Shown: in pieces, positions 14,667 to 62,440 of the stretch
Layout of the letters: each line of letters begins with the position of its first letter
Numbering within the stretch: the first letter of the stretch is position 1
Source: Eledone cirrhosa
Taxonomy: Eukaryota
Assembly: GCA_964016885.1 (NCBI GenBank)
Contig: OZ024742.1
Span: 86,428,001 to 86,492,000, forward strand
Direction of reading: 5' to 3'
DNA: 64,000 nucleotides
The notes under the pieces: model-generated
Database searches by the model: none
Told to the model about the DNA's origin: nothing
The model's input: the letters and a program-made list of their open reading frames with translations, nothing else
Program-made: the position numbers and the translations under genes

Positions 14667-14716
<50 letters not shown>

Positions 14717-14861
14717 ATAATAATAAATTTGAAGACTAAAATCCAAAGAGGGATCAATAAGGATAAATATATATCAAATATATAAGAACCGTAGAGTTTC
14801 AGAAGATCCCGTTAAGGGTGAAAGCAGCGATTCTTTGCTTAAACTTTAATCTGTTATTTTA

Positions 14862-14912
<51 letters not shown>

Positions 14913-14931
14913 CAATATATAGTAAGAAACA
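14454..14931. repeat. Long palindrome (~240-bp arms) centred on (TA)n, abutting the 5' end of Naiad A
   Basis: TGTTTCTTAC...TTATTACT(AT)n AGTAATAA...GTAAGAAACA; the arms read as reverse complements. Confidence 0.9.
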
Positions 14932-14932
14932 T

Positions 14933-15964
14933 GTTGGCTTAGACCCCGGATACTTGCCCCCCTTTTCCGACCGCTCCCACTATTCTCTGTGCCCTCTATA
15001 TTTCTTAGTGGCACTTATGCCTTATTTTTTCGTTTCAGTATTTCTTGCTTCGCTTTTCTTCTGGGCGGGGTGGATTCTGAACTTATTTCTCCGTATTCTA
15101 CCTTTATTTCGTACGAACTTTCATGTAGCTTGTTTTAGATCTTTTAGAGTTAGCATTAGTATATATTTTTCCCGGGACTCAGAATTATTATGTCGTACAA
15201 GTTCACTTTGCTGCACTGGGTCGTTGCTGGCCCGGGATGGAAACCTTTATTGTTTATTTCGTGGTAGTCTCTTTAGTATTTTGGCCCCTTTTGTTGACCA
15301 GTCACCGTATCATTTACGTACTTATACCTCTTAAAAGGGTCCTTGCCTAATTCGTCCCACCTAGTTCTTTTACTTATTTCCTTATTTATTTATTTATTTA
15401 TTTATTTACTTCTTTCTTTCTTTCTTTATTTTTTTCTTTATTTTATTCTCGCCTAACAATAGCCTGACACCTAGGTCGTAGAATTTAATTTTTTCTTTAC
15501 ACTTATTTGCTTTTCTTCACTCTCAGTATTTTTTCTTTCCTATTTTTACCCCCCATTGTTCTACCTACCGTTCCGACTTCCTCCCCCTCCCCCTCCCCTG
15601 TATCTTCTTTGACCTCATGCCCAGCTGTAGCTGGCACTACCAACGCTTGATTGGGTCTACTCCACCCCCTCCCCTCTTTCTCCTACTGGCAGGTTTAGCC
15701 ACCATCTCCCCTACTAATTTGCAACCACAGAATTACTACTGATTTTTGACAATCACTTTGACCATATATGGAATTACCCCTTGAGAAGATCGGCTATTTA
15801 AATACCAGGATAAATGTTCATTTAGTCCAGAATTAGCCGTCGAAACGGCTTGAGCTCAGCTGTCGGGGTCTTACTGGTTCCTATTACCCACTCTACTACC
15901 TCAAGTATTGAGTACTTTGGTGCGTTATGGTCCACCTGGTTCCTTACCACATTTCCTTCGTTAT
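14933..15964 (+). repeat. 5' pseudo-LTR (5'-truncated) of Naiad A
   Basis: Matches 18474-19505. Identical spurious ORFs at 14954 and 18495 confirm the identity. Confidence 0.93.
15776..15869 (+). ncRNA. Type I hammerhead ribozyme, U3-A8 core variant
   Basis: Stem I ACCCC/GGGGT; core TTGAGAA; stem II GA(T)CGGCTA/TAGCCGTC; GAAA; stem III CGGCT/AGCTG with palindromic TGAGCTCA loop region; GUC cleavage after 15864. Confidence 0.8.
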
Positions 15965-16054
15965 CTAGCTCCTACTCCCGTAGTAGAGCACTTTCCGACC
16001 CTACCACGCCGTATCCAGACTTTTCCGCTAAGCTCAATTCATTTCACCCGCACC

Positions 16055-18207: not shown

Positions 18208-18473
18208 ACTAGGGCTATAACACCCCAGTTGCCGATTTTGCAATGGGTAACCCCTGCTTGCCAAGGAAGACGTAAGATCTTCTTTGTATTCTTTTATCGC
18301 ATCCTTTATTTCCTTCCCCCCCTCTCCTTTGTCCTTCTACCCCAGCTCTTCTCCTTTGTCGGCGTCTTTTCTCGCCCACCCGAGGCTGCCCTTTGGCCCC
18401 ATGTAGCCTTAGTACCCCCACTCCCCCCTCCCCTAGTCTTTGATAGATTTGGCGGACTCCGCCCTTTATAGCA

Positions 18474-19501
18474 GTTGGCTTAGACCCCGGATACTTGCCC
18501 CCCTTTTCCGACCGCTCCCACTATTCTCTGTGCCCTCTATATTTCTTAGTGGCACTTATGCCTTATTTTTTCGTTTCAGTATTTCTTGCTTCGCTTTTCT
18601 TCTGGGCGGGGTGGATTCTGAACTTATTTCTCCGTATTCTACCTTTATTTCGTACGAACTTTCATGTAGCTTGTTTTAGATCTTTTAGAGTTAGCATTAG
18701 TATATATTTTTCCCGGGACTCAGAATTATTATGTCGTACAAGTTCACTTTGCTGCACTGGGTCGTTGCTGGCCCGGGATGGAAACCTTTATTGTTTATTT
18801 CGTGGTAGTCTCTTTAGTATTTTGGCCCCTTTTGTTGACCAGTCACCGTATCATTTACGTACTTATACCTCTTAAAAGGGTCCTTGCCTAATTCGTCCCA
18901 CCTAGTTCTTTTACTTATTTCCTTATTTATTTATTTATTTATTTATTTACTTCTTTCTTTCTTTCTTTATTTTTTTCTTTATTTTATTCTCGCCTAACAA
19001 TAGCCTGACACCTAGGTCGTAGAATTTAATTTTTTCTTTACACTTATTTGCTTTTCTTCACTCTCAGTATTTTTTCTTTCCTATTTTTACCCCCCATTGT
19101 TCTACCTACCGTTCCGACTTCCTCCCCCTCCCCCTCCCCTGTATCTTCTTTGACCTCATGCCCAGCTGTAGCTGGCACTACCAACGCTTGATTGGGTCTA
19201 CTCCACCCCCTCCCCTCTTTCTCCTACTGGCAGGTTTAGCCACCATCTCCCCTACTAATTTGCAACCACAGAATTACTACTGATTTTTGACAATCACTTT
19301 GACCATATATGGAATTACCCCTTGAGAAGATCGGCTATTTAAATACCAGGATAAATGTTCATTTAGTCCAGAATTAGCCGTCGAAACGGCTTGAGCTCAG
19401 CTGTCGGGGTCTTACTGGTTCCTATTACCCACTCTACTACCTCAAGTATTGAGTACTTTGGTGCGTTATGGTCCACCTGGTTCCTTACCACATTTCCTTC
19501 G

Positions 19502-19505
<4 letters not shown>
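18474..19505 (+). repeat. 3' pseudo-LTR of Naiad A
   Basis: Direct repeat of 14933-15964, terminating in (TA)n. Confidence 0.93.
19317..19410 (+). ncRNA. Type I hammerhead ribozyme, U3-A8 variant (3' pLTR copy)
   Basis: Same sequence as 15776-15869; predicted cleavage after 19405. Confidence 0.8.
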
Positions 19506-19551
<46 letters not shown>

Positions 19552-22656: not shown

Positions 22657-22920
<264 letters not shown>

Positions 22921-31634: not shown

Positions 31635-34600
31635 TCTATTTATTAATTTCACGAACGTCAGTATTCCGTGTGTCATAATTCTCGATTATCATTGCTTCAT
31701 AGGTTTCAAACGACTGTGCCCACCTCAACGACGCCAATCTGAAATTAATATGCATAATGTCAATGAGGGAGTGAGAGGGGAGAGTGTGAACGCTGTGTTC
31801 AATAACTATTAACATGTGTGCGTGTGTATGTACGTGCGCGTATGTTTATGTGTGTGTGCGTGCGTGCAGCGTTCCACAGATACTAAAAACTATCAACGTT
31901 TGTGAGTGTGTGCGTATGTAAATTTGCGTGCGTGTACGCGTTTCCATGCGTGTATGTGTGTGCGTTTCACAATCGCCACGCAGTTTATCTGTCTGTGTGC
32001 CTGTCTGTCAGTATAACATACACGGAGTTGTAAATGGAGTAAATAGAGACCTTTCTTTACATTGACGGACATCTTTTATATTTATTATTGTATCAATACT
32101 GATAATAAAAGCAATTCGACTTTATCAAACAGTGAACTACATCGGCGACGGCGTGCAGCCAGCAATGAAGAAAAACGGGCCGAGCAGCGCCATCGGAACG
32201 CAGAACTTCAGAGGCGAAGACGTGCCGTCATGAATGAAGAGGAGCTGGCTGAACAACGCCAACGAAACACTGGAACCAAGCAGCGACGGCGTGCTTCGGT
32301 GGTTGAAGACAAACTGGCTGAGCATCATCAGCAGATGGCCAGAAATCAGCAACAACGGCGTGCTGCGATGGATAAAGAGGAGCTGGCTTAACAGCGCCAG
32401 CGCAACAGAGAAGTTCAGAGAATCTGTCGACAAAGTGCTCCTCATTCCAGTAAAGAAGCTAGAAGGCGATATTAAAAATGGATCATGGCAACCGTGTCAT
32501 TTTCAGATTGGTGGACGAGCAGAGTGTCCACATTGTGTAGCATTGTTTTGGAGGCACGAAAAGACGTGGACCACAATGTGCTGTCATAAAGGAGCAGATC
32601 AACTAGAACCCTTGCGAATGCCGGATGATGAGGAGTCACCGGAGTTTAACATACTAAGTATGTGGGGTGATCAAAGAGACCGAGGTAGATTACTGCGCAA
32701 ATATTCGCGGCAATTAACAATTCATTAGTTTTAGCATCGCAGAGAGTTAGTGAGATGTGTGAGAGTGGAGCATGGCAACCCAATGTAGTCATTCAAGGCC
32801 GTTTGTATCATTGTATCGGTAATTTAGATATTACCACAGGAGAGAGGCCTCGATTCGCTCAAATTTAGGTTAATGAATCGGAGGAGGATATCAGGATCGG
32901 TTGGATGAAGTTGCCGGGAAATATAACTGAACTTGAACGCCAAATGTTAAGTGATTTGATCCGTGATTTGCAATCAAGGCTTAGACAGTGTAATCCTTAT
33001 GTTATGGATTTAATGTTGGTGGCTGAATTGCAAAATGTTCAGCAGCAACCATTGGTCGTTAAGGGGCTGACCCAGTGCCAATGAATCAACACGAACAGCG
33101 ATATAATGCCCCTGAAGGATTTCGTGAAGTTGCTGTGTTGATGCCCAGGAGGTGGCAATAGACACAATAATTCGATTCGCGACTTTTACGCGTTCCATTT
33201 GAACGAGAGGAATCAACAGAGAAATGCGCTATTTCAAGCCAGCAGATTGTTCCAGGATTACTGTTATATGGCATTCGCAAAGATCGAAAATCAAAGGCTA
33301 AAGTATATAGCTACACATCAGCAACATATCAGAGCTGAATTGTATAATAATATACAGGATGCGATAACAGCCGATGATGCCAATTACAAGCAAATTGCTC
33401 GACGCATCATTTTGCCATCGTCGTTCATCGGCGGCCCGAGATATATGAACATTCGCTATCAGGATGCAATGCATGTTGTTTGAAAGTTTGGAATGCCAGA
33501 TGTGTTTATAACGGTTACATGCAATCCTGAATAGACTGATATTAATGATGCACTTTTACCAGGGCAACAGCCAAAGGACCATCCTGATATTGTGGCAAGA
33601 GTTTTTTCAAAGGATATCTGAAAAAGATAATGGATGATGTGGAAAAAGAGGGAATCTTTGGAGGTATAGTTGCTTTTACATACGTAATTGAATTCCCCAA
33701 AAGAGGATTGCCACATGAACATTTGCTTATAATTTTATATAGAGATTGCAAATTGAGATGTGATGATGATGTCGACAGCATTGTTTGTGCTGAACTGCAT
33801 GAGAATGAGGCACTACGCAACTTGGTGGCAAAGTCAATGGTGCACAACCAATGCGGAGTGGCAAATCGGAAAGCGCCTTGCATGAAACATGGCCAATGCA
33901 GTAAGCACTTTCCGAAATCTTTTGTCACGAACACTTCCTGGAACTATGTGGATGCTCATCCCTCATTTAGAAGACGGTCGCCTGCAGATGGCGGTTTGGT
34001 CGAAAATATAAACGGTTGACAGGTTACAAATCAATGGGTTGTGCTATACAATCCATATTTGATTATGAAGTATCGTTGTCATATTAATGTGGACATTTGT
34101 AGCTCAGTGAAAGATTACAAATATATACTCAAATATGTTTACAAAGGTCATGATCGGGCAATGATCAATGTCAGGAATGAGGAGGCGAACTAAGGAGATG
34201 AAGTTGACAGGCTCCAGGATGTTCGCTAGATTGGATCTAGCTTGTTCGATTTTGTTCTGAATGAACGCAAACCCAGCGTTATGAAACTTACGGTTCACTT
34301 AGAGAATAGGCAAATGGTCAGTTTCAAGACACTAGAAGAGGTGTCGAAATAATTGCTAACGCACCACCTCCTAAGACGGAATTTACTGAATGGTTCAGGC
34401 ATAATAGAGAACATGCTTTGAACCCGGATCATAGGCGACTCTACTGCGATTTCCCTTCGCACTATACGTGGGATAAGAAGGGAAAGAAATGTAATGATAG
34501 AAAACAAAAGTTGAGATTCATGACAATTGGACAGGTTTGTAATGTCCATCCTGCATCTGGTGATGTGTTTTATCTCCGAATTCTGTTGCATAATGATTTT

Positions 34601-37600
34601 TCGAGAGCTAAACAGAGCTTCACTGATTTGAAAACACTCAATGGCGTGGAATATGAAACATACCAGGCTGTGTGTCAGCATCTGGGACTCCTTCAGGATG
34701 ACGCTGAATGGAATAACGCCATGGAAGCTGCAGGAACAACACAGATGTCAGCTCAAATAAGGCAGTTGTTTGTCACGATACTAGCATTCTGCAATTCTGC
34801 CGATCCAAGAGAGTTATTTGAACGTCATTGGGGAATTATGGCTGATGATTTTAGGCATCATCTTCAGGTCGATGATGAATATTTGATGAAAGTTATTGTT
34901 TTGCTCAATATTGAGCAACTGCTTGAAGTTCATTTCAAATGTTAAACAGATTTCAATTTGACAATTCCTGATGAAGAAATGCGGCAACGTGTCATAGCAT
35001 TGAACATGAGATTGCAGCTTAGACGGTTGCCACTCGATCGGAGGAAACTATTCCAGTTTGATCCACTGGAACAGCAACGTATTGTGAATGAACGTATGCC
35101 AATGTTGACCCAATCTCAGAGAAAATTGGTCGATCGCGTTCTCCACTCGATTTCAACTAATGAGCAACTTTGTGCTTTCATAGATGCTCCAGGAGGCACC
35201 GGAAATACATTCTGTTTCAACACTATGTTATCGGCAGTCAGAACTCAGAGGAAGATTGCTCTCCCTGTGGCCACCAGTGGGATCAATGCCACTTTGCTGA
35301 GTGGTGGAAGAGGTTCCACTCATGCTTCAAGGCTCCATTGGCTCCGGATGAGTTGAGTGTCTGTAACATTACAGGACAAAGTGAACTCCCGGGCCTTATA
35401 CGCAATACGTCTCTGATTATTTCGGACGAGGCTACAATGGCACACATATATTTGCTGGAGGCATTGGACAGAACATTGAGTTATATCTGCGGTAGTGACC
35501 TGCCATTCGGTGGTAAGACTATCGTTTTTGGTGGCGATTTCAGACAGGGGCTACCAATTGTTAGGAATGCTCAAAGAGCGTAAATTGTCGATGCATGTCT
35601 GAAAAAGTCCCCGTTGTGGCGCCATTTCAGAGTTTTCCGATTACACGATAATATGCGACTTCGTATGTTCGGGCAACACGAAGAGGCTGAGACATACGGC
35701 CGATGGTTGATGCAGTTGGGAAACGATGAATTGCCACACGTTGGTGATAATCAGACTGTAAGACTCCCAGACCATTTGGTCATGCCACTGGACCGCCAAG
35801 CATTGATTGACTGGGTGTTCCCTAATTTGAATGCTTTTTGGCAGAATATCTCCTGGATATCGGAACGCGTTATTCTAACTCATTCGAATGCAACGGTCGA
35901 TGAAATAAATTCACAAGTAGCCGGAATGTTTCCTGGAGAGGAATGGTTCACCGTCAGTGCGGGAGCAATATGGAAGTTCCGACTGTTTGTCTGAATTCAC
36001 TTCAAATACCCGGATTTCCCCCACAAATTTTGAAGTTGAAAAAGGGTATTCCGATTATATTGCTTCGAAATATCAAACATAAAATGGATCTTTGATTTGG
36101 TACCAGATTGATTGTTGAGAGAGTGATTAACGGAAGAGTTTTAGAAGCTAAACTCCCAGGCAGAGAGGAATCGGTTCTCATTCCGAGGATCATGCTGAGA
36201 CCAAGTGAAGATCTGATGCCATTCATGTGTCAAAAGCGACAGTTTCCCGTCAATTTGGCTTTCTCCATGACTATCAATAAGGCACAGGGACAGACTTTCA
36301 AGCGAGTCGGTGTCTACTTGAATGATCCAGCATTCAGTCATGGGCAACTGTATGTTGCTGTATCTCGAGTGTGCGATCCTGATGTTATAAGATTTGCAGT
36401 TGATACCACTAACAGAGGAACAACCCTGAATATTGTCTATAATGAAGCTTCGAGCTGATGTATGCATATCTTTAATGCTATCAATAAGCGACGTAAATGA
36501 TTCGGACATTGTTGTCCTTTGATCAGTATTGTGAACTTTGACAGAGTTATCATCTATGTTCAATGTCATTTAATGTCGTTAGGAGCAATAAAAACAAACA
36601 AGTATTGGTAAAAATTGCTCTCACTGCTATGTTGCGCAATAAATACCAACAAGTATTGGTAGAAATTGCATTCACTGCTATGAATATTCGACGTAAATGA
36701 TTCAGTCATTGGTGTCCTTTGAACAGTATTGTGAGCTTTGACAGAGTTATCATTTCTGTTCAATATCATTTATTGTCGATAATGAGCAATAAAAACAACA
36801 AGTATTGGTAGAAATTGCCTTCAAATGTAACGCTTCTGATTGCAGTGGTAATAACACCTCATCATATGCTGAGTCTGGCAAAAAGTTTGGTGCATATGGC
36901 CGGCCAGGTATAGAGTAATATTGTAAAACGATTCTATGTTCGAAGTAGAAGGATCCGATATTTGGAGTTCAAACCAGTCCACCTCCCCTAGTTGAACTCT
37001 GGGCAATATTGACTGTCTATTCCTCTGTGGCTACGAGCCTGGAAATTAGTGAATACATTTTTGTGTCATATAATTTGTTGTTTTATTATTATAGCTGACC
37101 ATTTATAGATAAGCATGTTATCCATATCCATATTAATTTCCATATCCATATCCATATCCATATTAAAATGTTATCCATAAACCATTTCAAGTAAATAGGG
37201 ACCTTTTTTACATTGACGGACATCTTCTATATTAATTATCTCTATCTATATCTACATACATTATAAATGATTGGAACTTCAATCATCCTTTTGAGAAACG
37301 TGGAACAACCACGTCTATGCAATGACACACGTTTCACAGTCAGGCAGAAGATGAAGTATGTCCCAGAGGTCACTATTCTAGGTGGGAGTAGCACCTAGAA
37401 TTGTTCATATACTATGCACAAACGGTACCACGAAGAATCTGGTATATCTGGAAGATTTATTAAACTGTTTTTGGTATCACACAGACACCAGGGACTCGCC
37501 TCATACTGTAACCAGACAAAAATCCAATTCAGTCATTTTCTCTTTTACCTGTCTTCTCTTATCATCTGTTTACCCGGGCGAAGCTGGGTACATCAGCTAG
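31635..37600 (+). mobile_element. Full-length (decayed) Helitron
   Basis: 5' TC; 3' hairpin CCCGGGCGAAGCTGGG then CTAG followed by T; Rep/Hel coding remnants. Confidence 0.92.
32062..36458 (+). pseudogene. Helitron Rep/PIF1-helicase, disrupted
   Basis: Rep motifs FITVTCNP, YVIEFPKRGLPHEH and KYVYKGHD. Helicase motifs DAPGGTG, ISDEATM, GGDFRQGLP, RQFPVNLAFSMTINKAQGQT and FSHGQLYVAVSR. Many stops and frameshifts. Confidence 0.93.
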
Positions 37601-37915: not shown

Positions 37916-38685
37916 TTATTAGTCTGTCTTTTTAGATAGATACATAGCTATGAGGTCGCGCCCTTATAATATATGTATGTATGTCTGACTGTCTGCATTA
38001 AGACATACGACACAAATTGTTCTCATTGATGACGTATTTTCTTCGCTATTTTCCATTCATTGCCAGGGAACCTCTTCACGAACCTAAGTATCGTCTTCCT
38101 GTTTTCCTTTGGTTGCAACGTATTTCGAAATATATAATTCTGCGTTCACAGACTGATTTTTTTAGTTTCAGAAGATCCCGTTAAGGCGAAGCACACGTTG
38201 TAAGCAATTTCAATATTACTGCTGCTACATAGGACTCCCATTACCACTGAAATTTCATCTTTGCGTTCTGCATTTCCATCCGCAGGCCAACATGGAATGT
38301 TCTTCATAGTAGTCAGACTATTGAGGGAGAAACAGATGGTCTCGAATTTACTGTCCAAAAAAACCCATTGACAATAACGAAAACCGCTTACATCAACCCA
38401 TAATGGTACATTGTAGGTCGTTTTAACCCGTCTTTTATTAATGAAAAAACTTCTTGCCAATAAACATTACCTCTTTGTGCGCCAATCATCTAAGCGTAAA
38501 CCTAAAAATACCAACTAAACGGAGGGTTGACAAGAACGATGGCGAATGAAACTTCGAGGTAAGCAGTTTCCTCCCGAGCTGTTAGTTCACGCGGTATTCT
38601 CTGCTACACCTTTTCATAATAATATCGAACAACGTACTGCTGGTCATTCCTTCCGCCAAAAGACGTACAAAGCGGACATGTGCAT

Positions 38686-38992
38686 TTAAGTAGCAGCCGT
38701 ACTATCAGTGAGAAATGAAATTTCATTTTTTTCCATTTATCGTTTTCGGTACGCCCGTCCGTCTAACTCACTCGATATGCAAATTAGACTGCTCAGCCTT
38801 TAATATGCATCAGGAAAGTATATACTTTCAAACGGTCAATCACCATACGTACATATATATATGCGTGCATGTATGTATGTATATACATACTACTGTACGT
38901 CTGTATATATATATATATATGTATGTACATATACATACTTACATTTAAGTATCACCAGCACTAAGAATGTGAAATGAAATTTCATTTTTTTC
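38686..38992 (+). mobile_element. R1 copy with internal deletion removing the HHR; terminally redundant
   Basis: TTAAGTA.CA.C.G.ACTA...GAAATGAAATTTCATTTTTT occurs at both ends; octamer at 38777. Confidence 0.65.
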
Positions 38993-39007
38993 ATATATAT
39001 ATATATA

Positions 39008-40255
39008 TTGTCCTGGATATGGCATTAAACTACATCCAGTGGCAAGGCTCTAGTTCGGGAGTTCAGGAGTTGAGGGGAATGTGGAGTTACTCCTTAGTTG
39101 TTATAATTCCCAGGTCTGCTCTGGCCCGGAGTCGTTGTACCTGTTAGGGCCCAATTTATGGGTTAAATAACTACCTTATACGAGTGGCGCCGGTAAGGTA
39201 TTGTCAGCCATTGAACAGACATATGGAGAGTCTATCTAACAGCACAAGGGTTAAAGCCCCTAATTACATTGTCAAAGAGAAGTCTGGTCGTTATGACTCT
39301 GCTGGCTTAGAGCCACAGGGAGGGCCAGTGGATGATGGATCAGCTGTCTCTGAGACAAATATAAAGAATGCTGTTTTGTCCTATAGAAGAGCCATCAAAA
39401 TGGACACTTTGAATGTGAGGACTATTCGGACGCTGGAGAAGAGAGAGGAGTTGGGAAATATGTTCGAGGAGAGTGGTATACATATACTTGCGATCTAAGA
39501 ACACAGGATCCTACAGGATGGGCACGTGAGGAGTGTGCTGATTTGGAAGATGAGCCAGTTCATCACCACATCGGCAGTGAGGAACATGACCAATGCTGCA
39601 GTGGGAGGAGTGGGTTTTGTTTTCAGCACAAAAAGCAGTCTATTGGTGAGGGAAATAATACCTGTCTCCTCGCGAGTGTTGAGGGTGACCTTCCATGGAA
39701 ACCCAGGACTGACAGTCATCTCAGCCTATAGTCCAACCGAGGGAGACAGTGATGTGAGTGCGGAAGAGTTCCAAGAGGAGGTGCGTAGAGCTGTCAACAC
39801 CACACATTCACACAACATCCTGCTTGTTTTGGGGGACTTCAATGCATATCTGAGTAAGGATGGCAGTGAAGATCCTTGCTGGTACTTCCATAACAAGACC
39901 AACCGAAATGGAAGACTACTGAGAGACAGTTGTTATGAGTGATGTCCGGGTGAGTTTAAGAAAGAACAAGGTTCAGCCCCAGAGATCAATCTATGACTGG
40001 GGAGCTTTCAAGGAAGATGATAAGCTACAGGAGAGGTTCACAGTGGAAGTGAGTAACGGGTTCAGTGCTCTGTGTGGAGAGACAGAGGATAGAGAGATCG
40101 GATGGACTGAGGAGAGTGTGACGAGGAGGCACTGGCACTTCACCAATGCAGTGGCGGAAGCAAGTGAGACCCTGGTGCCGAGGAGAAAGAACAAAAGGAA
40201 GCACGTCAGTTCTGCAGACCCAAAAGTGTGTGCAGCCAGAGAACACCTGTTAATA
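39008..40255 (+). mobile_element. RTE LINE 5' portion (UTR + APE endonuclease + linker), disrupted
   Basis: TLNVRT, ILAI*EHR, GGVGF, VISAYSPT, LVLGDFNA, TNRNG.LL. Confidence 0.88.
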
Positions 40256-40627
40256 TGCAAGAGGAAAGTATATACTTTCAGACGTTCAATCATCTGGCAG
40301 GAAAGTATATGGTGCTGACGATAGCTAATAATCTTGAAACTAGTACAGCGTTCCTTTGTCAGTGTTGAACAAAAGGGCAACGATGGTTGCTAAACACTGT
40401 ACGGCTCAATTCGTGTTGTTTGTTTACAAACAAACCGAGCATTATAATAAATGTTCGGTGAATGCATACCTACATATATATATATATATATGTGCATGTA
40501 TGTATTTATATATACATACTACTGTACGTCTGTATACATATATGTATGTACGTATGCATACTTATATTTAAGTAACAGCCGTACTAAGGGTTAGAAATGT
40601 AATTTCATTTCATTTTTTCCATTTATA
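40250..40627 (+). mobile_element. Retrozyme-like family R1 copy
   Basis: Homologous to 54065-54290 (reverse complement) and 38845-38990. Confidence 0.7.
40309..40351 (+). ncRNA. Minimal hammerhead (R1), partly degenerate
   Basis: ATGGTG-CTGACGA-TAGCTAATAATCTT-GAAA-CTAG-TA-CAGCGT, with mismatches in stems I and II. Confidence 0.7.
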
Positions 40628-41225
40628 TAGGGACCTGTAACAGACAGGCTGAAACACTCATACACACAACAACCACCCACACACACACGTGTGTATTTTT
40701 ATATATACACCCTCACACTATACAGACTCTCCCTAAAACCATATTCCAATAAAATAATTTATTTTACAACCCTACAGTTGCCATATAATTCCTCATCCCC
40801 CTCTCTACCCCCTTTGAACTCTTGCCCAGTCAATTAACACAATCAGAATATTTCCTTTGCCGCACTTCTCTCTCTCTACACAAGAGCTCATTCTCCAGTC
40901 TCCTTACACTCCACAACACTTAATTTTAAATCTTTAATTTTTAGTTTTTAATTCTTATTAATTCTTTTTAATTTTAATAAAGATTTGATATGATGAATTT
41001 TAATAATACATTGTAACCGGTAATATTTGATATGCTTTATATACATTATAACTATTTTTAAAAGAAATGTCCCTCTCATTCTTTTCAATAATATCACTTT
41101 GACGAATCAAAGAAAGGTAAAAAAAAGAAAAACAGACCCTAAAATATATTTTCCGAGCTATTTCCAACTTCACCTTTTCTCTATAACCAATGTGTTGTAT
41201 ATATATATACTTTTTTATATATATG

Positions 41226-43516: not shown

Positions 43517-43612
43517 GGGGAGAGATAGATAGATAGAGAGAGAGAGAGAGATTGAGAGAGTGAGAGAGAGAGAAATATATATATATATATATATAGAGAG
43601 AGATTGATAGGT

Positions 43613-43871
43613 ATATGATAGAAAAATGACGAAATTTCGTTTACATATGAAAAATATTTATTGGGTATCGACCCGCCACAGTGCCTCGCAGAGGACTGGC
43701 TGAAGGTATACCATAGGTGTTATTGACCCATCTCGGATCGATACTGGAGTTAGATCCATAACTCCTATGGGTTAACTTGAACCACTCCTCTCGAAGGCGC
43801 GCATGGATGATCGATACACAATAAATATTTTTCATATGTAAACGGAATTTCCTCGTTTTTCTTTGTTATAT
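43613..43871. mobile_element. MITE / fold-back element with ~55-bp imperfect TIRs
   Basis: GAAAAATGACGAAATTTCGTTTACATATGAAAAATATTTATTG..TATCGA versus TCGATACACAATAAATATTTTTCATATGTAAACGGAATTTCCTCGTTTTTC. Confidence 0.75.
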
Positions 43872-45908: not shown

Positions 45909-46030
<122 letters not shown>

Positions 46031-46082
46031 TAGAAAGGATTAATATAAAATGAAAGTGCTTTTTTTAAAAAGGAATTTATTA

Positions 46083-46202
46083 GGTATTGACATATGTTTC
46101 TGTAACAGACGGAATACCTATGTATCGCTGCTTGCGTAATCATATACTGTTAGCAAGTATTCGATAGCAAATGTATAATCAGTTGTCACTTCTTCAGAGA
46201 TT
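46083..46202 (-). ncRNA. HHR-like motif in Naiad B 3' pLTR
   Basis: CTGAAGA-A-GTGACA...TGTTAC-A-GAAA-CATATG-TC, with a long stem II and palindromic minimal stem III. Stem I pairing is weak. Confidence 0.6.
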
Positions 46203-46669
46203 TTGGATAAACTGGATAAAATCAGAAAAATTGAAGTATTTATATTAGTAATAGAGGAAGAAACAGAGGGGATAGTATATGACAGATGGTAAATTAATTT
46301 ACTGCTAAACAAGTATATAATGGGTTTCTAATGAGAATACCATGAGTAAATCTAAATAAGAATTTTGGGAGTGCCAATTTTAATCTCTACTTGACCAACT
46401 GGACAGTCGACAGGGCTGGTCATTTGGTGCAGTAGTATTAATTATAAAGTGTCAATTGGGGAAGGGGGAGATTTCGATTGCTACTAAATAACATCAATGC
46501 TAGTAGCCAGCTAGTATATGCATTAGGGAATTGAATCAAGAAATCAGAAATCTCATTTTATCTATAGCAGTTTGTATTAAAAGGTAAATAATAGAAGAGT
46601 TGATAGAATTAAGACTAATAAAGAATGTTCATATCTATTTTGACAATCAAACGGGGATAGAGACAGGCG

Positions 46670-49003
46670 TTCAATCCTGGTAGTATTTATAATATGAAAA
46701 TGTAGATTTTAAGCGATGGTTACAGTATAACGATCGCTCTATTCTGTTATTTAATAAAATGTTTTTGGATTTCATAATACAAAATAATTCTACATTACAT
46801 AATTTACAAAATTCCTGTCCATGGGAATATGGGGGGGGGGGGGGGGGGCGCAGCCGCTATTATATACCATTTTAGCTGAAAATGTTGGTTATTTTCACGC
46901 AGCTGCCAAGCCTTGTCTGCGAGTGTTGTTATATAACGCTGGTCTTCATGTTTTATCGAGTAACGATGTCTATAAAGGCGTGATTTGAAGGAGGTGGCTG
47001 TAGATCCTACATAGTACCACTTCTGTCTATCCGATTCGATAGTACATTTGTATACGATGTTGCGTTCAAGACACTGATTGTTCAACGGACACATTCCTGG
47101 TTGGACACAGTTGCAATTATAATTTTGCGTTGTTGTATTGCCATGGATGGGTTGATGAGGTTGCTTATGTAGGACAGGATGTTGTTTGTTGTTTTGTGAT
47201 GTTATAGCTAATGTTTTACGTGTATTGTTATGTGTTGGAAGGCGTTTATACAACCGTTTTGCGTTAAGCTTTTTTATATGTTGTTCAATATTAGGGGCGG
47301 TTGAATATGAAAGTCGAATAGTGTTAGGGTTTAAGATTTTATTATATTTATGTGATGTTGGAAAGTGCTTTTTAACTAATCGAAAGAATTTTGAGGGTAG
47401 ATTGGTTTTAATAGAGTTGTTATAGACCGGGTTGTACCAAATATACTCCTTACATCGCCTTCTGTTTGGTGGTGTGCGACTATTATTGTGTCTATTGCTG
47501 TAGTGTATGTATGGTGGTGATTCTGTGCTATTTCTACTCCTATGGGATTTATTTTGGGTGTTTTGGTGATCTTTGACTATATACTCTATATTATCTAGGT
47601 GACCGGCTTTCCTAAGTGCATCATCATAATATTCGGCATGCTCTTTGAAGGTTTGTTGGTTGGACGACTGGCGGGAGATTCTAAGAGAAACATTTCTAGG
47701 GATGGATTTAATTATAGAGAGTGGATGGTTAGAACTCGTATTTACATATTTAAGGTTCTCATTTAGTTTATGGAACGGTTTAATCGTATCTGTATTGAGA
47801 TTCAAAGTAACATCAAGGAAATTGACCTCTTTGAGGTTCTATTGAAATGTAATATTTAATCCTAGTTCCTTAAAAAGCTTTCTGATATTTTTACGCATCC
47901 TTTCTAAATTCTGTTTATTCATATGCTTAACTAATAGGAGCGCATCGTCACGGTAGATTCCACCGTGGAGATCCTTGAATTTTCCTTGTAATCTGTGGGT
48001 GATATAAATTCCCACAAGATCTGTTACTTCCGCCGAATCATTAGAACCCATAGTGATATCAAAATTAGAAAGTCTATCTTTGCGAACCCAGTAGCTATCA
48101 TCGAATTTAACTATAGTTTTCCTCGCTTCCATAATAATTTTAATTTCAGCATCCGTAAGGTCGGAATTATCCTTAGCGAACGAAAGAGCTTCATGTAGAG
48201 TATCAGGTGAAATTGAGGAATAATATTCATCAATATCAAACTGAATAAATTTTGATTTTTTCTCATCAGTAATGTTATTAAACCATCTTATTGCTTCATG
48301 GGTGTTACCCCATAGTTTAATCTCTACTTTAACCTTAACTTGGGGGGATAATTCTGTCTAGTATATATTTGCTAATTTTGCCTATATCAGATTTAGAGGG
48401 GCATATAAGTCTAATATTAGGGTTAGTATCGAAGTTTACCTTGTGGTCCTTCAGGTTGAAGGATGGTATAGCTGGTGTTAAGGGTTGCGTTCTATCGTCA
48501 ATACAAAGTGTTTTAACAATATCACATGCCGAGTTGTTGATGTTTTTAAGTGTAGCTTCATTAGTTTTCCTGTATTTTTTATGCAATTCCTTACGGATGA
48601 AGTTATTGTAAGTGTCCACATCCATGGTATATACGTTTGATGTTTTGTCTGCTCTAACAATAATTCCATTGGCGTTTTTTAGATTATTGAGCAGTGCCGT
48701 GATGTCATTCTGTAGTTTATTGTTCTTCCGTTTTGTAAATTTGATCTCCATGATCATATCCATTAGGTCTTGTCCAAATGCATCCAAAAGTGGGTTTGAG
48801 GGTGGGTTCTTGTAAGATTTAAATCCAAATTTATCCTTGTTAAGATCCGATGTTTGGTTTATACGGCTTTTGTCAAAATGGAATGTTTTCCATCTGATTC
48901 GTCGAATAAAATGATTGGTCCTTCGTATCATACCTAGAATATATTCCCTTTTTGCATGAATAGGTATGTTTTTTAACGACATATCCAATTGGTGCCTTTC
49001 CAT
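46670..49003 (-). pseudogene. Naiad B RT + GIY-YIG ORF with frameshifts (~48345, ~46840) and an in-frame TAG at 47839
   Basis: LDMSLKNIPI, IRLICPSKSDIG, FIQFDI, FDITMGSNDSAE, GIYRDDAL, CNC..CPL..C, YVGST..FKSR..H, FCKLC..E. Confidence 0.9.
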
Positions 49004-49211
49004 TTTAGAGACGTATGCTGAATTAGTTGCTCAACTGTATAGGAGATTAATAAAATTTCAGGTTATCAATAATGTAGTGATAATATATCGTTACGTTAGA
49101 GATGAACAGCGTACGTGCAGGTTTGCTCAACGAGTATAAATTATATTCCGGAGATAATGTAGAAAGGATGAATATGAAATGAAAGTGCTTTTTTTTAAAA
49201 GGAATTTATTA

Positions 49212-49331
49212 GGTATTGACATATGTTTCTGTAACAGACGGAATACCTATGTACCGCTGCTTGCGTAATCATATAATGTTAGCAAATATTCGATAGCAAA
49301 TGTATAATCAGTTGTCACTTCTTCAGAGATT
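49212..49331 (-). ncRNA. HHR-like motif in Naiad B 5' pLTR
   Basis: Copy of 46083-46202. Confidence 0.6.
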
Positions 49332-50167
49332 TTGGATAAACTGGATAAAATCAGAAAAATTGAAGTATTTATATTAGTAATAGAGGAAGAAACAGACGGG
49401 ATAGTATATGACAGATGGTAAATTAATTTAATGCTAAACAAGTATATAATGGGTTTCTAATGAGAATACCATGAGTAAATCTAAATAAGAATTTTGGGAG
49501 TGCCAATTTTAATCTCTACTTGACCAACTGGACAGTGGACAAGGCTGGTCATTTGGTGCAGTAGTATTAATTATAAAGTGTCAATTGGGGAAGAGGGAGA
49601 TTTCGATTGCTACTAAATAACATCAATGCTAGTAGCCAGCTGGTATATGCATTAGGTATTGAATCAAGAAATCAGAAATCTCATTTTATCTATAGCAGTT
49701 TGTATTAAAAGGTAAATAATAGAAGAGTTGATAGAATTAAGACTAATAAAGAATGTTAATATCTATTTTGACAATCACACGGGGATAGAGACAGGCGTTC
49801 AATCCTGGTAGTATTTATAATATGAAAATGTAGATTTTAAGCGATGGTTACAGTATAACGATTGCTCTATTCTGTTATTTAATAAAATGTTTTTGGATTT
49901 CATAATACAAAATAATTCTACATTACATAATTTACAAAATTCCTTGGCACTACCATTGTTACCATCGCTTTCCTCTAGCCATGGGGCTTGGAGACATGAA
50001 CCGAATGCTAGCATTCTATTTTATATCAAAGTGAACTGCTATTTCTAATGGCCATCTTTTCACCCCTTGATAATGTGTGTGTGAGACACGTTGGCTGGGT
50101 CCTTCTGACAGGAAGGAAAATATTGATTCTTTTTAGCTTCCCGTCCCCACGTAAAATTTGTAAATCA

Positions 50168-50423
50168 GTGGCTGGTTGAGAGATAGAGTCCTATCGGGTG
50201 CCAGTTGCTAATAGCTTTACCGTGTCAGTCGTCACAAACAGACATGGCCGGCATAGACTGGTCTTAGGATTCTGTCGATCGATTGGTTATTGATTAGGCG
50301 ATACCCGCTGATGAAGCCGCATAAGCCGATTTTGAGTTGTGGCTTAATATATGCAGACAGATGGTGCAGTGCACCTTACTGATGCATTAGTGCGGCAGAA
50401 ACTATCTCTAAGGTTGCCGCCAC
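50168..50423 (+). ncRNA. Candidate type III hammerhead with aberrant cleavage-site junction
   Basis: AGAGATAG pairs with CTATCTCT after GAAA (50398); CGGGTG pairs with TACCCG before CTGATGA (50308); stem II GCCGCA/TGCGGC. There are 8 nt (AGTCCTAT) where UH is expected. Confidence 0.5.
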
Positions 50424-50459
50424 GATACAAACATTCTAGTGCAAACTACATAAATGCTT

Positions 50460-52272
50460 GTACGAAGTATATGAAAAATTTGATACGGAAAATTAATTCA
50501 GAATACCTACTGACAAAAAAAAAATACTGATATACGAGAAATTAAAGCAAAGATACCACTAAGAAATATAGAAAGCACGGAAAAGGGGCAGCCATCGGAT
50601 AAGAAGGTAAGTCTCCGGGGTCTAACACATCTGCTATAAAAAGTGGAGTCGGCCAAATCTATCATAGAATAGGGGATGGGGGTGGGGGTACTGAAGCTAC
50701 AAAGGACCGAGGGGCTGCCTCGGGTGGACGAGAAAGTGAAAAGGACGACGACAAAGAAAGAGAACTGGGGCTGAAGGACTAGGGAGGGATGGGGGGAAGA
50801 AGGAAATATAGAGGAAGCGATAAAAAGATATAAAAGAAGATCTTACGTCTACCTTTGCAAGCAGGGGTTACCCATTGCAAAATCGGCAAGTGGGGTGTTA
50901 TAGCCCTAGTCTATGGTCATTATGGGGTTTGAGGGCGAGGTAAGTCCTAAGCAATCTGTGTTTACATGCAGTTACCAGTTCATCTTTCTTGTTTAGGAGT
51001 TGGTCAGTCGAAAACAGCATTTGTAAAGTTTCCTCCGAGCATAAATTGCACGGACGGCGTCCTCCCGTGTAAAAGTTGGCTCTGGACAGTAAGCTCCAAG
51101 TGAGATCATAGGTAATATTGTTCTCCTTGAGGCCCCATATGTGGCCTGAAAGTGTAGTGGCGTGACGCCGGGCCGGGTTTCGGAGGTATGTCTGTGTTGG
51201 TATAGCCGGGTCTTGAAGTCACATGCGGTTAATCCTATATAAGCTTTGTTGGAGGTGTCCGTCCTCACGTTGCACTGGTAGATCACATTACAATCTCTGC
51301 ATCTGTTGTCGAGGGGGAAATTGGATCCATCGGGACAGTTGCACCTCCTGGACGGCTCTCCACTGTATTTAGGTTATTTCTAAAATAGGGGTTGAATTTT
51401 TTGTTGGTAGAGGAGACGATGTTTTGTGCAAAGTTTGGTGTGGTGCTGTAGGAAGGTTTGATGGTATTTTTGTTAATTATGTTGTGGTAGCGGTGTTGTA
51501 GTCGGAACTGTTTTTCAATGAGCCTAAAGAAGATTTTCCCGATAGGAGTTGTCACCTCGGCGTTGTGGGGAGGATTGTACCATGTTACATTGCGTGAGCG
51601 GCGGTGTCGCCTGCTGGTTCCGCTAATGGAAGCTGGACAGTAGGATATTTCCTCCCAGAAACCACTCCGCTTGAGGGCCTGGTTGTAATAAGGCGCATGT
51701 TCCTCGAATATCTGCTCATTAGCGGACAAACGAGATATGCGGAGGGAGATGTTTTTAACCAGGTTATTGGTGATGTTCCTAGGATGGTTTGACCGGCGGT
51801 GGATGTAGTGCAGGTTGTCGTTGGGTTTCCTGTTTGGGTAGTACAGATCATTATCGAGGTCAAGTGTAACATCCAGGGAGTTTACTCGGGTCAGGGACGT
51901 TTGTAGGGTTAATTTAAATCCCCAGTTGCGAAAGAAGCTGATTAATTGTTTACGGACCCGATGTGTACTACTGGGGTTGTTCCATTTAAGGGTTAGGAGC
52001 CCATCATCACGGTACAATCCACCGCCGAATGCAGGAAACATATCGGTGAGTTTAGCTATTAGGAATAATCCTATAACATCTGTGACCTCAGCCGAATCCG
52101 TCGCGCCCATGCTGACGTCGATGGGTGAGTCAGGAGCTCTCTTTATCCATTTGCAGTTGTCGAAAAGTAGGACTGTCTTCCTGGCGTGGAGGAAGATGTT
52201 TCTTTCCTGGTCGGTGATGGGCACAAGTGTTTTGGCGAAGTCCAAGGCAGCCGTAAGTAGCGGAAAGGTAAT
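50460..52272 (-). mobile_element. Older, 5'-truncated copy of Naiad A (RT C-half, GIY-YIG, part of 3' UTR)
   Basis: ORFs 51283-52245 and 50993-51286 are close paralogues of the 16055-18207 protein, and the 3' UTR resembles 18210-18700. Confidence 0.9.
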
Positions 52273-52725
<453 letters not shown>

Positions 52726-52776
52726 ACAATTAAGTTAAAGTGTACATCTATATATGTATACGGAAGTATCAGTATG

Positions 52777-52834
<58 letters not shown>

Positions 52835-52987
52835 CACATATGTATACATATGCACATGTACCGAGCTTTTCACTAGACACTTTACAGTGAGTGTCCAGCT
52901 AGTCTGTATGTAAACAGACGAACCGGGTTTTAGAGTCATACGAGTTTTCAAGGAAACACATTTCCTCTATTCTCCAGAGAGCCAGAC

Positions 52988-53040
52988 AGGAATATTGGAC
53001 TAGTTTCGATGTTATTACATCTCATCAGCAATATATACCT
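52988..53040 (-). ncRNA. Minimal type I hammerhead ribozyme
   Basis: ATATTG-CTGATGA-GATGT-aata-ACATC-GAAA-CTAG-TC-CAATAT, extended by the flanking inverted repeat ATTCTCCAGAGA(A)GCC. Confidence 0.92.
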
Positions 53041-53081
53041 ATCTTTCCGGCTTCTCTGGAGAATTGTAAAAGCACATATCG

Positions 53082-53140
53082 TTATATGCTTTTTCTATGA
53101 AAATCAGTAGTGGGCAGACTAATTTGCATAGAACGTGAGT
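53082..53140 (-). promoter_or_regulatory. Octamer + TATA-like module upstream of R2 HHR
   Basis: ACTCACGTTCTATGCAAATTAGTCTGC...ATTTTCATA...GCATATAA; the motif is shared with R1 and R3. Confidence 0.5.
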
Positions 53141-53146
53141 CATTGT

Positions 53147-53975
53147 ACGGTCTATCTTTGCGAACCCAGTAGCTATCATCGAATTTAACTATAGTTTTTC
53201 TCGCTTCCATAATAATTTTAATTTCAGCACCCGTAAGGTCGGAATTATCCTTAGCGAACGAAAGAGCTTCATGTAGAGTATCAGGTGAAATTGAGGAATA
53301 ATATTCATCAATATCAAACTGAATAAATTTTGATTTTTTCTTATCAGTAATGTTATTAAACCATCTTATTGCTTCATGAGTGTTACCCCACAGTTTAATC
53401 TCTACTTTAACCTTAACTTGGGGGATAATTCTGTCTAGTATATATTTGCTAATTTTACCTATATCAGATTTAGAGGGGCATATAAGTCTAATATTAGGGT
53501 TAGTATCGAAGTTTACCTTGTGGTCCTTCAGGTTGAAGGATGGTATAGCTGGTGTTAAGGGTTGCGTTCTATCGTCAATACAACATTTTTTAACAATATC
53601 ACATGCCGAGTTGTTGATGTTTTTTAAGTGTGGCTTCATTAGTTTTCCTGTATTTTTTATGCAATTCCTTACGGATGAAGTTATTGTAAGTGTCCACATC
53701 CATGGTATATACGTTTGATGTTTTGTCTGCTCTAACAATAATTCCATTGGCGTTTTTTAGATTATTGAGCAGTGCCGTGATGTCATTCTGTAGTTTATTG
53801 TTCTTACGTATCTCTGAAGAAGTGACAACTGATTATACATTTGCTATCGAATACTTGCTAACATTATATGATTACGCAAGCAGCGATACATAGGTATTCG
53901 GTCTGTTACAGAAACATGTGTCAATACCTAATAAATTCTTTTTTAACAAAAGCACTTTCATTTCATATTCATCCT

Positions 53976-53979
<4 letters not shown>
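53147..53979 (-). mobile_element. Naiad B internal RT fragment (53147-53808, minus) with inverted pLTR (53809-53979, plus)
   Basis: Near-identical to ~48070-48730. The inverted segment carries the HHR-like motif (53809-53927) and ends CTTTCTA(TA)n. Confidence 0.9.
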
Positions 53980-54015
<36 letters not shown>

Positions 54016-54197
54016 GTATATATATATATATAAATTACCATATATATATGTATATATATATATATATGTACGTATCAGTTTAGCGAACGTTTATTATAAC
54101 GCCCGCTTTGTCCGTTTGTAGACAAGCGAACGGCCTGATTTATGCCATACGGTGTTAAGGCAACCACGTCACCTTTTTGTTCAACACTGACACAGGA

Positions 54198-54240
54198 ACG
54201 ATGTACTAGTTTCAAGCTTGTTAGCTATCATCAGCACCGT
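54198..54240 (-). ncRNA. Minimal type I hammerhead ribozyme (R1)
   Basis: ACGGTG-CTGATGA-TAGCTAACAAGCTT-GAAA-CTAG-TA-CATCGT; GUA triplet. Confidence 0.88.
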
Positions 54241-54273
54241 ATACCCTTCTGCCAGATAGTTGAACGTTCGAAA

Positions 54274-54333
54274 GTATATACATTCCTTATGAAAATTAAC
54301 GGCTGAGCAGCCTAATTTGCATATCGAGTGAGT
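54274..54333 (-). promoter_or_regulatory. Octamer + TATA-like module upstream of R1 HHR
   Basis: ACTCACTCGATATGCAAATTAGGCTGC...ATTTTCATA...GTATATAC; also present at 38766-38826 (+). Confidence 0.5.
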
Positions 54334-55434
54334 TCAGTCGGCCAGGCGTACCGAAAACGATAAGTTGTAATATAATGAAACGAAATTTCATTTCTCAACT
54401 TTTTGTACGGCACTTACTTAAAAGTAAGTATGTATACAGTAAGTATGTATACAGTTTAAAGGGCTTTGCAAATTGAAAATAGCGATAGCTAATTCATCCG
54501 CGTGATATGTAGCAACGAAAGAACGTACTAGTGTATAAGAACTGTATATATATATAGTAATAATATATATATGTAACCCATTAGCAACCTAGCATCACGT
54601 TTATTCTCATATTTACACATATCTTTTGCCTCGCTGTGACCCGTCTATTTCGTTCTTACTGCTTCCTCTTTCTCTGTACCTTTATCCTCTCTAGCAGTCA
54701 CTCTCTCTGTTAGCCTATTCCTCACCCTTCACTCACTCACTCTCTGTTACTACCTCTCCTCCTCCTCCTTCTTCCCGTTTGACAAGTGCGTAATTCTTTT
54801 CTTTCGCACCCTTGGTCATGCAGGTCGCTTTTTTTCTCTCTCGTCTACGATTTCACAGAACTTACGTTCATCGAATTCACAGACTAGATCCCTTCTTCCT
54901 CCCATTAGACCTGTACAGAATTCCTTCCTTGCTCACATTCCAACCAGGTTTGATGGTCTTTATTCTCTCTCGTTCACGATTTCACCGAACTTATATTCAT
55001 GGAAATTTGGGACTTGACTCCTTCTTCCTCACTTTTCGTTGCTTCGCCATCTTTGTTTGTTTACACTCTCGTGTCCCCTTTATTTACGTGTCCCAACGAC
55101 TTTTCTTAGCCGTTGCTCGCACCAAGCGGAGGTATATGGTCTTTAAAGCGATGAAATACCAATGATGGTTGGGAGATCACTGATGAAGGACTAACTTTTT
55201 CATATATATATATATATAGGTATATATGAATGTATATATATTGTATTTTGCACTACATTGTATGCTTAATTAAAAGCATTTTGATGACCTTACGCTATTG
55301 TTTTTAAGTAGTGACTATTTCACTTACTTCTTTTGTCAACAAACGAAGGAAGATAAGCTGACAGATCGCGGTTTCATACTGCGGGTATTCCTCAGAGCTT
55401 AGCTTGTGTAAATTATGAATGCTGGATTCTTATA

Positions 55435-57365: not shown

Positions 57366-57380
57366 TATATATATATATTA

Positions 57381-57606
<226 letters not shown>

Positions 57607-59000: not shown

Positions 59001-60230
<1,230 letters not shown>

Positions 60231-61167
60231 TGTTTGTTAAAATATCCACATTAATCTAATTAAAAAGTTAACCATACATAGGAATAGAAAGCTTGTTACC
60301 AACGGGCCAGAAGGTTGACAAGTCGACCCTAAATATGACTAATGGCTCTAAGAAAGACATGGACGACGCCATATCCTTTTACCTTTGTCTCGGTGGCCTA
60401 GTAGCAAGAACAAAAGACAGTGCTGATCCTTGTCTGAAGTTCGATCCTGGTCGGGAGTAGGGCTTCCGGTATGCCTTTTCATTTTTTTTTTCTATGGGAT
60501 GTAAAATAAAACCTGATAAAGATTACATGTACCACTCGACCAGGATTGATCCCAAGACCAGGATCTCCAACGCACTAGTATCCTACGCTTTTATTTCCAA
60601 AGTGGTTGATAATTATTAATTTTCTCGATATCTTTGTATCTGTCTCGGTCGGTGGCCTAGACGGAGCAATCATATGTTGTGGTGATCCTGGGCGCGAGTA
60701 GGGTTCCCAGCAAAACTTTTCAGTTTTATACTATGGGATACAAAATAAAAACTGAACAGATAACATGTACATCTTAACTAGGATTGAACACAAGACCACG
60801 ATTTCCTTAGTCTCTAGTACCTATCACTACTCCAATGAGATAGCTACGGGAATCCCACGAAAATACATACTTATAAATCTACTTTCAACATTTTAAAATC
60901 AAAATAGTGTGGTGTCGTTCATGTCTTTCTTAATTGTATTGCTTCTACTTAAGCTCGACCTTTAAATCATTTGGATTTCCTTAAACTATATCCTTTTGGT
61001 TCTCCTCTATCTACACTATATTTACAGTTGTAATCCACGTTTCATTTCTGATGCCTCTCATTTCTGCCCCTTCTCTCTGTGATATTTGAATCTAATATGA
61101 TTTGGGCTTACTTTGTTCATATATACATGTTTTGCATGTCAGATTCAAATTTACATTGATTGGCATC

Positions 61168-61262
<95 letters not shown>

Positions 61263-61269
61263 CATCACT

Positions 61270-62440
61270 GGTTTGTTAAAGTAATCAAATTAAATTAATT
61301 CAATAGTTAAAGACACATGGGAATAATAAACTTGTTAACAAAGATCCAGAAGATTGACAAGTCGACTCTAAATATGAATAATAGCTCTAGGAATGATATC
61401 TCTTCTAATCGTTATAATGCTTAGGGGATTATATAATTGAATACGCTCTGATTTTGGGCTGTATTGTAGCATGCTGCGCATTAAATGAAATATCTCTTAG
61501 TTGGATGATAGGTTGGATAGTCTCGGGTATGTGTTTCTGACCTAATTTATTGTAACATCCATAGGTTGGTTGGATAATCCCTGGACAGATTAGCATGCCT
61601 AGTACGCTTTCAGGTAAATATAGAAAAGCTGCTTCAATATGATGAGAGTTACATCATGGAAGTGGTTACTTTTAAGGAATGTTTGTTTAGCCAATTTGAG
61701 ACGGAGTCCCGCGAAGAGTTATTTTTGTGCCTGAACCGTGATTCGGGCGTTGTATCCAGTGTGTGTCACTATTCTTACTTTTCTGCAAGAATCCTTTCTA
61801 AGTGGGGAAATCTTCTATACCTTTTTGAAGATGAATATGCGAAACATATCGGTTACTGTCGTAGTGTAAGTAATAGCACTGTGGGAATGAAATGGAGCAT
61901 GTGAAAACGTTTGATCCAATGAAACTTTTTTACTTGTGAATCCCCGGCTTGTAGAATGAAGTTTGTATCCTGATCCCTGATTTGGGGAATAGTCAGGCGT
62001 ATTTTATAGCCAACTGTAATTGAGGGTGTGTTATGGAAGTATAGTTCTTTTTTATACCCAACTGAATAAAACTGTATTTTCACGCAGATGATTGGGAAAG
62101 TGTCTGACCCTCCGGAAGTTAATTTTTAATTTATCCATTGTTCAGTTGCCTGTAAATTTGTAATATAAAACTTCGTTCGGTTGATGAGTCAGATAATGGT
62201 GTTTTAGCAAAGTTGTGTTTGTGGTCTTTAGTGTAGAATATGTTTTCCAATGAGGGAGGCATTGGGTTCAATCTTTGAATTTCAATTTTGAGGTGACATA
62301 CGGCCATATTATTCAGTAAGGGACGTCTATTCAATAGCAAGGGCGAAATTGTTACATCGTGAAAACGTAGGTTATTGATAAACGTGCCCCAAACTAAAGC
62401 ACTTGCTAGTCTATTTGCTGTTACTAAAGGTGAACACAAA
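61270..62440 (-). mobile_element. Decayed PLE-like RT relic
   Basis: Fragmented RT/thumb-like ORFs. The end 61270-61393 is duplicated at 60231-60352. Confidence 0.4.

Follow-up and report, generated by a model that had tools for sequence, protein, structure and literature searches.

Which enzyme spreads animal retrozymes has so far been inferred only from co-occurrence and pLTR similarity. Mobilisation by Penelope-like elements (PLEs) is already a proposal in print: PLEs were named strong candidates in 2020 (Cervera and de la Pena, PMC7229834), and a 2026 bioRxiv preprint drew on pLTR similarity and shared occurrence to argue that retrozymes derive from PLEs as non-autonomous elements (Li et al., 10.64898/2026.07.22.740005). 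A chimera that stood up to validation would reveal the helper; for small RNAs, the mobilising enzyme was deduced in this way from U6/L1 chimeras (PMC4476161). The locus described here cannot do so by itself. In the literature at hand, largely abstracts with few subscription papers, we found no published retrozyme-PLE chimera, and the supplements of the 2026 preprint may list overlaps.

Craig et al. 2021 (PMC8557442) describe Naiads as having their endonuclease at the N terminus, together with DKA and CCHH, and the Hydra clade as carrying a C-terminal endonuclease, RWK, DKT, a CxCx5C linker and terminal CxxC and CxH motifs, with no CCHH and with (TA)n targets. The supplement of that paper lists hammerheads for many Hydra families. 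As for integration, purified PLE protein cuts both DNA strands, extends them, and begins reverse transcription at internal RNA sites that have no homology to the cut DNA (PMC11167929). In Adineta, the PLE duplications on record measure 8-10 bp (PMC3846280), and in L1 twin priming microhomology is frequent at the internally primed end (PMC2912911).

We analysed a 64,000-nt stretch of the Eledone cirrhosa genome (assembly GCA_964016885.1, contig OZ024742.1, positions 86,428,001 to 86,492,000), called here the window, in which a retrozyme, R2, stands against two pieces of a PLE of family B (Table 1). The join looks more like two separate insertions in the same TA repeat than one shared copying event, and it does not name the enzyme that spreads R2.

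Table 1. Position and strand of the features at the R2-B locus and of the copies used for comparison (window coordinates).
Feature	Position	Strand	Remarks
R2 retrozyme	52724-53149	minus	426 nt, putative type I hammerhead non-LTR retrozyme; 3' end defined, in (TA)n at 52724
Type I hammerhead core in R2	52998-53028	minus	CUGAUGA, stem II, GAAA, minimal palindromic stem III, long stem I extension
TA block	52785-52830 (about)		internal to the R2 unit; R1 units carry the same block
Internal RT fragment of PLE family B	53150-53809	minus	corresponds to B 48731-48072; frameshifted
Terminal 174 nt of B	53810-53983	plus	head-to-head with the RT fragment
(TA)n	52553-52723		shared between R2, at its 3' end, and PLE copy A', at its inverted 3' terminus
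Pure (TA)n run	53979-54014		beyond the B 3' end
R1-family retrozyme	54015-54455	minus	hammerhead core 54234; ends within its own internal TA block, without tail
TACG, left copy	53146-53149	plus	first four bases of R2; candidate 4-bp target-site duplication
TACG, right copy	54013-54016	plus	first break in the TA run
PLE B reference copy	46028-49944	minus	partial tandem; RT, then C-terminal GIY-YIG; frameshifted
PLE copy A' (control)	50435-52552	minus	inverted 3' end; body untraceable to its own 3' end
LINE control	39000-40630	plus	APE-type LINE 5' fragment to 40243, then 5'-truncated R1 retrozyme 40244-40630

An earlier note on this DNA had described a Naiad RT fragment that runs on the minus strand into R2, an R2 that ends in a TA-rich microsatellite and, at the other end, an inverted Naiad pLTR closing in (TA)n. 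The outline holds, with corrections. R2 and the RT fragment do adjoin directly, at 53150|53149 and not at 53147; R2 does end in (TA)n, whereas the TA block further in belongs to the unit itself; and the inverted piece is indeed the 3' terminus of B next to (TA)n, but of an element that is not a Naiad. In exact alignments, the RT fragment differs from B 48072-48731, on the same strand, by 11 substitutions and 2 gap columns in 661 (~98% identity), the inverted end differs from the two pLTR copies of B by 7 and 8 substitutions, and the inversion junction 53809|53810 is blunt. Downstream of the RT fragment 2044 nt of B are missing, and on the B RNA the two segments are separated by 1.87 kb (48072 vs 46201).

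By its domain order and motifs, B is assigned to the Hydra clade and not to the Naiads. RWK (48895), DKT (48649), YRDD (47955) and CxCx5C (47115) follow one another in this order along the minus strand of the reference copy, and the GIY-YIG half-motifs (47055 and 47013) come after YRDD, that is, C-terminal to the RT, where a Naiad has its GIY-YIG N-terminally. The C-terminal endonuclease is recognised by motif, since Pfam gave no GIY-YIG match at E 0.1 and only a weak RVT_1 match (E 0.011, in 1 of 6 proteins). Beside E and N stand CxxC (46808) and CxH (46724), in another frame after a poly-C run; a deletion in the endonuclease end was considered and rejected in favour of this poly-C frameshift. 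Both B and the second PLE of the window, A, have DKT (B 48649, A 16403) in place of the DKA that replaces DKG in Naiads, and a single cysteine, as read from the translation, lies between their two half-motifs in place of CCHH. A Naiad identity was rejected on these three grounds together. No G.K[FY] match occurs in B, as expected of a clade with RWK and DKT in which GxKF/Y is unconserved, and both B 3' ends outside the tandem (46028 and 53983) adjoin (TA)n.

Compared with the descriptions in PMC8557442, B thus resembles Hydra PLEs in its C-terminal GIY-YIG, RWK, DKT, CxCx5C and the CxxC/CxH around E and N, as well as in its (TA)n target, partial tandem and inverted 5'-truncated copy. Its (TA)n preference, pLTRs and inverted copies are shared with Naiads too. 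It differs from most of the Hydra families listed there in its period (~3.1 kb vs under 3 kb), and from many of them in that pattern, helix and Rfam scans found no canonical hammerhead in the B pLTR, both copies being mutated; a degenerate CUGAAGA motif is visible by eye. The pLTRs (46028-46816 and 49157-49944) differ by 17 substitutions in 789. A search with the B RT piece gave one weak locus among 53 candidate stretches (32%). We also observed that A (14933-19508) is a young Hydra-clade PLE with 1035-nt pLTRs that are 99.9% identical, a 628-aa RT frame and, by eye, a hammerhead-like variant close to its 3' end.

By its sequence R2 is a non-LTR retrozyme: it is non-coding, falls within the 150-450 nt given for such units, and holds a predicted type I hammerhead. 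The cleavage triplet GUC ends at 52998, a helix scan also picked up the hammerhead, and Rfam Hammerhead_HH9 scored 34.9 bits (E 1.3e-6 in a 1.7-kb search), under its gathering score of 52. The fold of 53149-52855 is far better than that of shuffled sequence (z -7.8, 0/200). R2 is 63% alike to R1 at 54333-54110 (z 13.9, 0 of 200 shuffles), and its tail compares with the R1 tails at z 3.5 for the copy at 40k and at z 1.8 and 1.1 for two others. In a five-copy alignment the R2 3' end is in register with three R1 copies, all in TA. Metagenome contigs contained 0 stretches matching the hammerhead pattern taken from R2. In run X1 the summed contig depth, which is not a copy number, was 55,692-421,756 for R2, 1,221-12,055 for the RT piece and 51,822-129,568 for the B 3' end, and indicates that R2 and B ends are very abundant.

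R1 copies lie at 38685-39008, 40244-40630, 54070-54455 and 57367-57507 and have an internal TA block. In three of them the end falls in TA at nearly the same point, to within a few bases, and two open with a repeat of the tail, resembling a pLTR partial tandem. R1 and R2 resemble metazoan non-LTR retrozymes, as described in PMC7229834 and 10.64898/2026.07.22.740005, in being non-coding, a few hundred nt long, low in GC, strongly self-pairing and abundant, with a type I hammerhead. They depart from them in being dispersed, as single units or partial tandems of ~445 nt; the unit has a TA block within it, and its 3' end is defined, TA-primed and a long way from the cleavage site. Moreover, R2 differs from those retrozymes in that no homology to the pLTR of B or of A, the two PLE families present locally, was detected (z -0.9 to 1.5); its origin as the own pLTR of either one was rejected on the same comparison.

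We looked at the R2-B junction itself for what it says about the copying. In loose ends of X1, X4 and X5 other R2 copies extend beyond 53149, resembling the R1 stretch after the tail; therefore, R2 is 5'-truncated here, probably ~19 nt short of one ~445-nt unit, and the loose ends point to a tandem or circular unit. As the copied R2 RNA would have been read through the cleavage site, a circular or uncleaved retrozyme RNA may have served as template. The junction sits 151 nt upstream of the ribozyme cleavage site, so that the RT was not running off a cleaved RNA end there, and a jump or ligation at the ribozyme-cut end was rejected for this distance. The microhomology that the earlier note wished to see compared amounts to at most 1 nt of overlap between R2 and B, considering that B-family contigs in X1 and X5 align from 53149. 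Self-comparison of the window revealed no B remainder beyond R2, so that simple nesting of R2 in B is ruled out, and, other than the full copy, none elsewhere. In addition, X13 contains an opposite-strand joint between 52942 and 53149 (7 reads, 4 starts, shorter side 29 letters), both sites of which start CGTA on the R2 strand; it may reflect either a PLE-like inversion of R2, 53149 then being a recurrent breakpoint, or an alignment artefact at 80% likeness.

The earlier note had taken the locus for a single TPRT event, in which the RT copied R2 RNA and then jumped to its own, with Naiad as the autonomous partner, and had named a TSD or a remainder of either element, or different ages of the two halves, as signs to the contrary. 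Two of these signs did not appear: a remainder is missing, and the ages cannot be told apart. Among the best listed pieces, R2 differs from its nearest relatives at up to 4/201 positions and the RT piece at 5/515 (p 0.28), and within organism B the best listed pieces gave 4/201, 3/135 and 3/170 (p 1.0), a low-power comparison of selected pieces. Inseparable ages are expected from a single event and equally from two co-active families. The third sign is present in a short form noticed post hoc: a 4-bp TSD-like match, TACG, stands on either side of the B part only, as would be expected of a target duplication. The possible R2 breakpoints that match TACG equally well number 10 of 420, or 5 of 290 in the R2 core (R2 range). 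Both outer ends of the composite lie in (TA)n, which makes a TSD around the whole of it unreadable. A single event is thus geometrically possible, given the common strand, the TA ends, the missing remainder and the undetected age gap, but the TACG around B alone and the LINE control speak for something else, and the single-event reading is not established.

The LINE control also answers the claim about the autonomous partner. At 40244-40630 the truncated 5' end of an R1 copy adjoins the middle of an APE-type LINE on the same strand (Exo_endo_phos E 0.004, below the cut-off), and six-frame translations showed no continuation of the LINE after 40630. This unrelated pair has the same geometry as R2 and B. 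By the logic of the earlier note the LINE would count as a helper too, and adjacency therefore cannot identify the partner, which, besides, is no Naiad. A single R2-B neighbour pair is also unsurprising considering that B makes up 7.4% of the window and that five R elements lie in it.

We think that B inserted by two-ended priming between two pre-existing retrozymes, and give this reading about an even chance. R2 would have been in place first, its truncated 5' end adjoining the TA block that belongs to an R1 retrozyme. Family B, a Hydra-clade PLE, would then have made a cut staggered by 4 nt at this TA border, and both ends would have served as primers: from one, 174 nt would have been copied starting at the 3' end of the B RNA, and from the other, 660 nt starting within the RT region. 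Joining of the two cDNAs head to head would have duplicated TACG. Several observations favour this order. TACG closes the left flank and is the first to break the TA run after the B end. The layout is that of L1 twin priming, with an internal segment inverted relative to the 3'-terminal one, and the account of twin-primed L1 inversions (PMC2912911) likewise has a head-to-head inversion and an internally ending arm. Inverted arms that stop short recur in the window, in A' and at 59105-59300, the latter ending 67 nt short of the end of its unit, and the adjacency of a retrozyme 5' end to a cut-off retroelement recurs with the unrelated LINE. Purified PLE protein, as reported in PMC11167929, extends both strands and starts inside RNA. 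The missing tail of the R1 copy at 54k is explained as well. On the other side, TACG was noticed after the fact and a TACGT-like motif is native to R1 TA blocks; its 4 bp are fewer than the 8-10 bp of the Adineta duplications cited above; the overlap at the internally primed end is ≤1 nt, whereas L1 often has microhomology there, according to PMC2912911; and the B segments are far apart on the RNA, as given above.

Next comes a deletion join, which we regard as possible but rather doubtful. Here B would have inserted first in the standard way, its 3' end inverted. Either R2 subsequently entered the 3' (TA)n of B and had its 5' end connected to a point 2044 nt upstream, or the two neighbours were fused by a deletion at a later time. 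The normal PLE layout is an inverted 5'-truncated copy (PMC8557442), and PLE 5' joins without TSD are on record (PMC3846280). A blunt or 1-nt junction suits it, deletions are frequent nearby (the R1 copy 38685-39008 has lost its ribozyme core and A' lacks 23 nt), and the R1 copy at 40244 adjoins a LINE whose downstream part is lost. However, a 2-kb loss is required in a copy only ~1% diverged, and the TACG match would be left to chance at the 10/420 given above.

Less likely still is a template jump within one integration, in which the Hydra-clade B RT started on R2 RNA from the left (TA)n, copied nearly one unit of it and switched to the middle of B RNA; the product would then have been joined to another cDNA, primed at the right (TA)n on the 3' end of B. 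On this reading B would be the R2 helper. The strand shared by R2 and B, true RNA 3' ends in (TA)n at both outer ends, the lack of further B remainder in the window apart from the full copy and the age gap undetected at low power all agree with it. Both families are nearly unchanged in a second organism (X5), and of five ends tested the R-element ends score best against the B end (z up to 2.3, nonsignificant over 20 comparisons). LINE template-switch chimeras, some with internal entry, are known (PMC4476161). In that paper, however, accepted chimeras have a TSD around the whole unit and normally start on the autonomous RNA; at this locus the TSD-like match surrounds only the PLE part and the order is the opposite. 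Three templated segments are required, the cleavage site lies away from the junction, R2 has no detectable homology to the B or A pLTR, the LINE control has the same geometry, and the neighbour pair needs no special cause in view of the B and R content of the window. A frozen co-integration, in which the RT of a Hydra-clade PLE, copying a retrozyme RNA that was circular or uncleaved, passed through the ribozyme site before it jumped to its own RNA, is in our view just as improbable; if true, it would be direct genomic evidence of a named PLE family mobilising a retrozyme unrelated to its own pLTR.

An assembly artefact that joined two abundant repeats is very improbable: none of the 24 contig pieces listed bridges 53149 by 31 letters on each side (pieces from 4 of the 15 listed runs, the small-share rows X6-X12 left out, with 861 further pieces and 297 loose ends beyond those) and several fold-back palindromes stand at TA repeats in the window, but repeat contigs break at such sites, a gap in coverage proves nothing, and both halves differ from their family majorities (e.g. 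at 53035, 53199, 53230 and 53918), as would be expected of a single locus that has aged.

More useful as a lead is the R1/R2 family, which is very abundant, (TA)n-primed at a fixed point far from the ribozyme, and organised in partial tandems. Because of the target, this fixed internal 3' end and the partial tandems, R2 was most likely spread by some (TA)n-targeting PLE, plausibly of Hydra type. The R2 end, TA-primed and distant from the ribozyme, agrees with a helper of Hydra type but does not single out B. With these properties, and with Hydra PLEs that target (TA)n abundant in the genome, it is feasible to count junctions genome-wide and to test priming in vitro.

The window holds further elements. 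Between the A' body and the B 5' end lie 490 nt with 45% GC (49945-50435); comparison did not support them as an A' pLTR (z 0.5), and on the plus strand CUGAUGA and a stem can be seen by eye, the GAAA half being absent. Unrelated hammerhead-like motifs occur at 14242-14293 (plus), 19871-19833 (minus), 55395-55360 (minus) and 63852 (minus). The element at 14k has inverted 3'-end copies at 13921-13989 and just before PLE A. Long near-perfect palindromes were found at 14454-14931, 22657-22920, 13842-14077, 43612-43870 and 59105-59525, several of them centred on or bounded by (TA)n and adjoining PLE ends; they are either products of fold-back synthesis at integration or assembly artefacts. At 59105-60139 and 60138-60360 / 61176-61399 there is a partial tandem of 546-nt period with an inverted arm between TA runs, and this element (59105-61399) has a PLE-like architecture and no long ORF. 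The LINE pieces at 39.9k and 45k do not align with each other and are uninformative for the LINE control. Broken ORFs at 33588-36458 presumably resemble a Helitron Rep/helicase, and a family of ~190 nt (3820, 6246, 12554, 22930, 24197, 43964, 55745 and 58816) is SINE-like, similar, we assume, to cephalopod SINEs.
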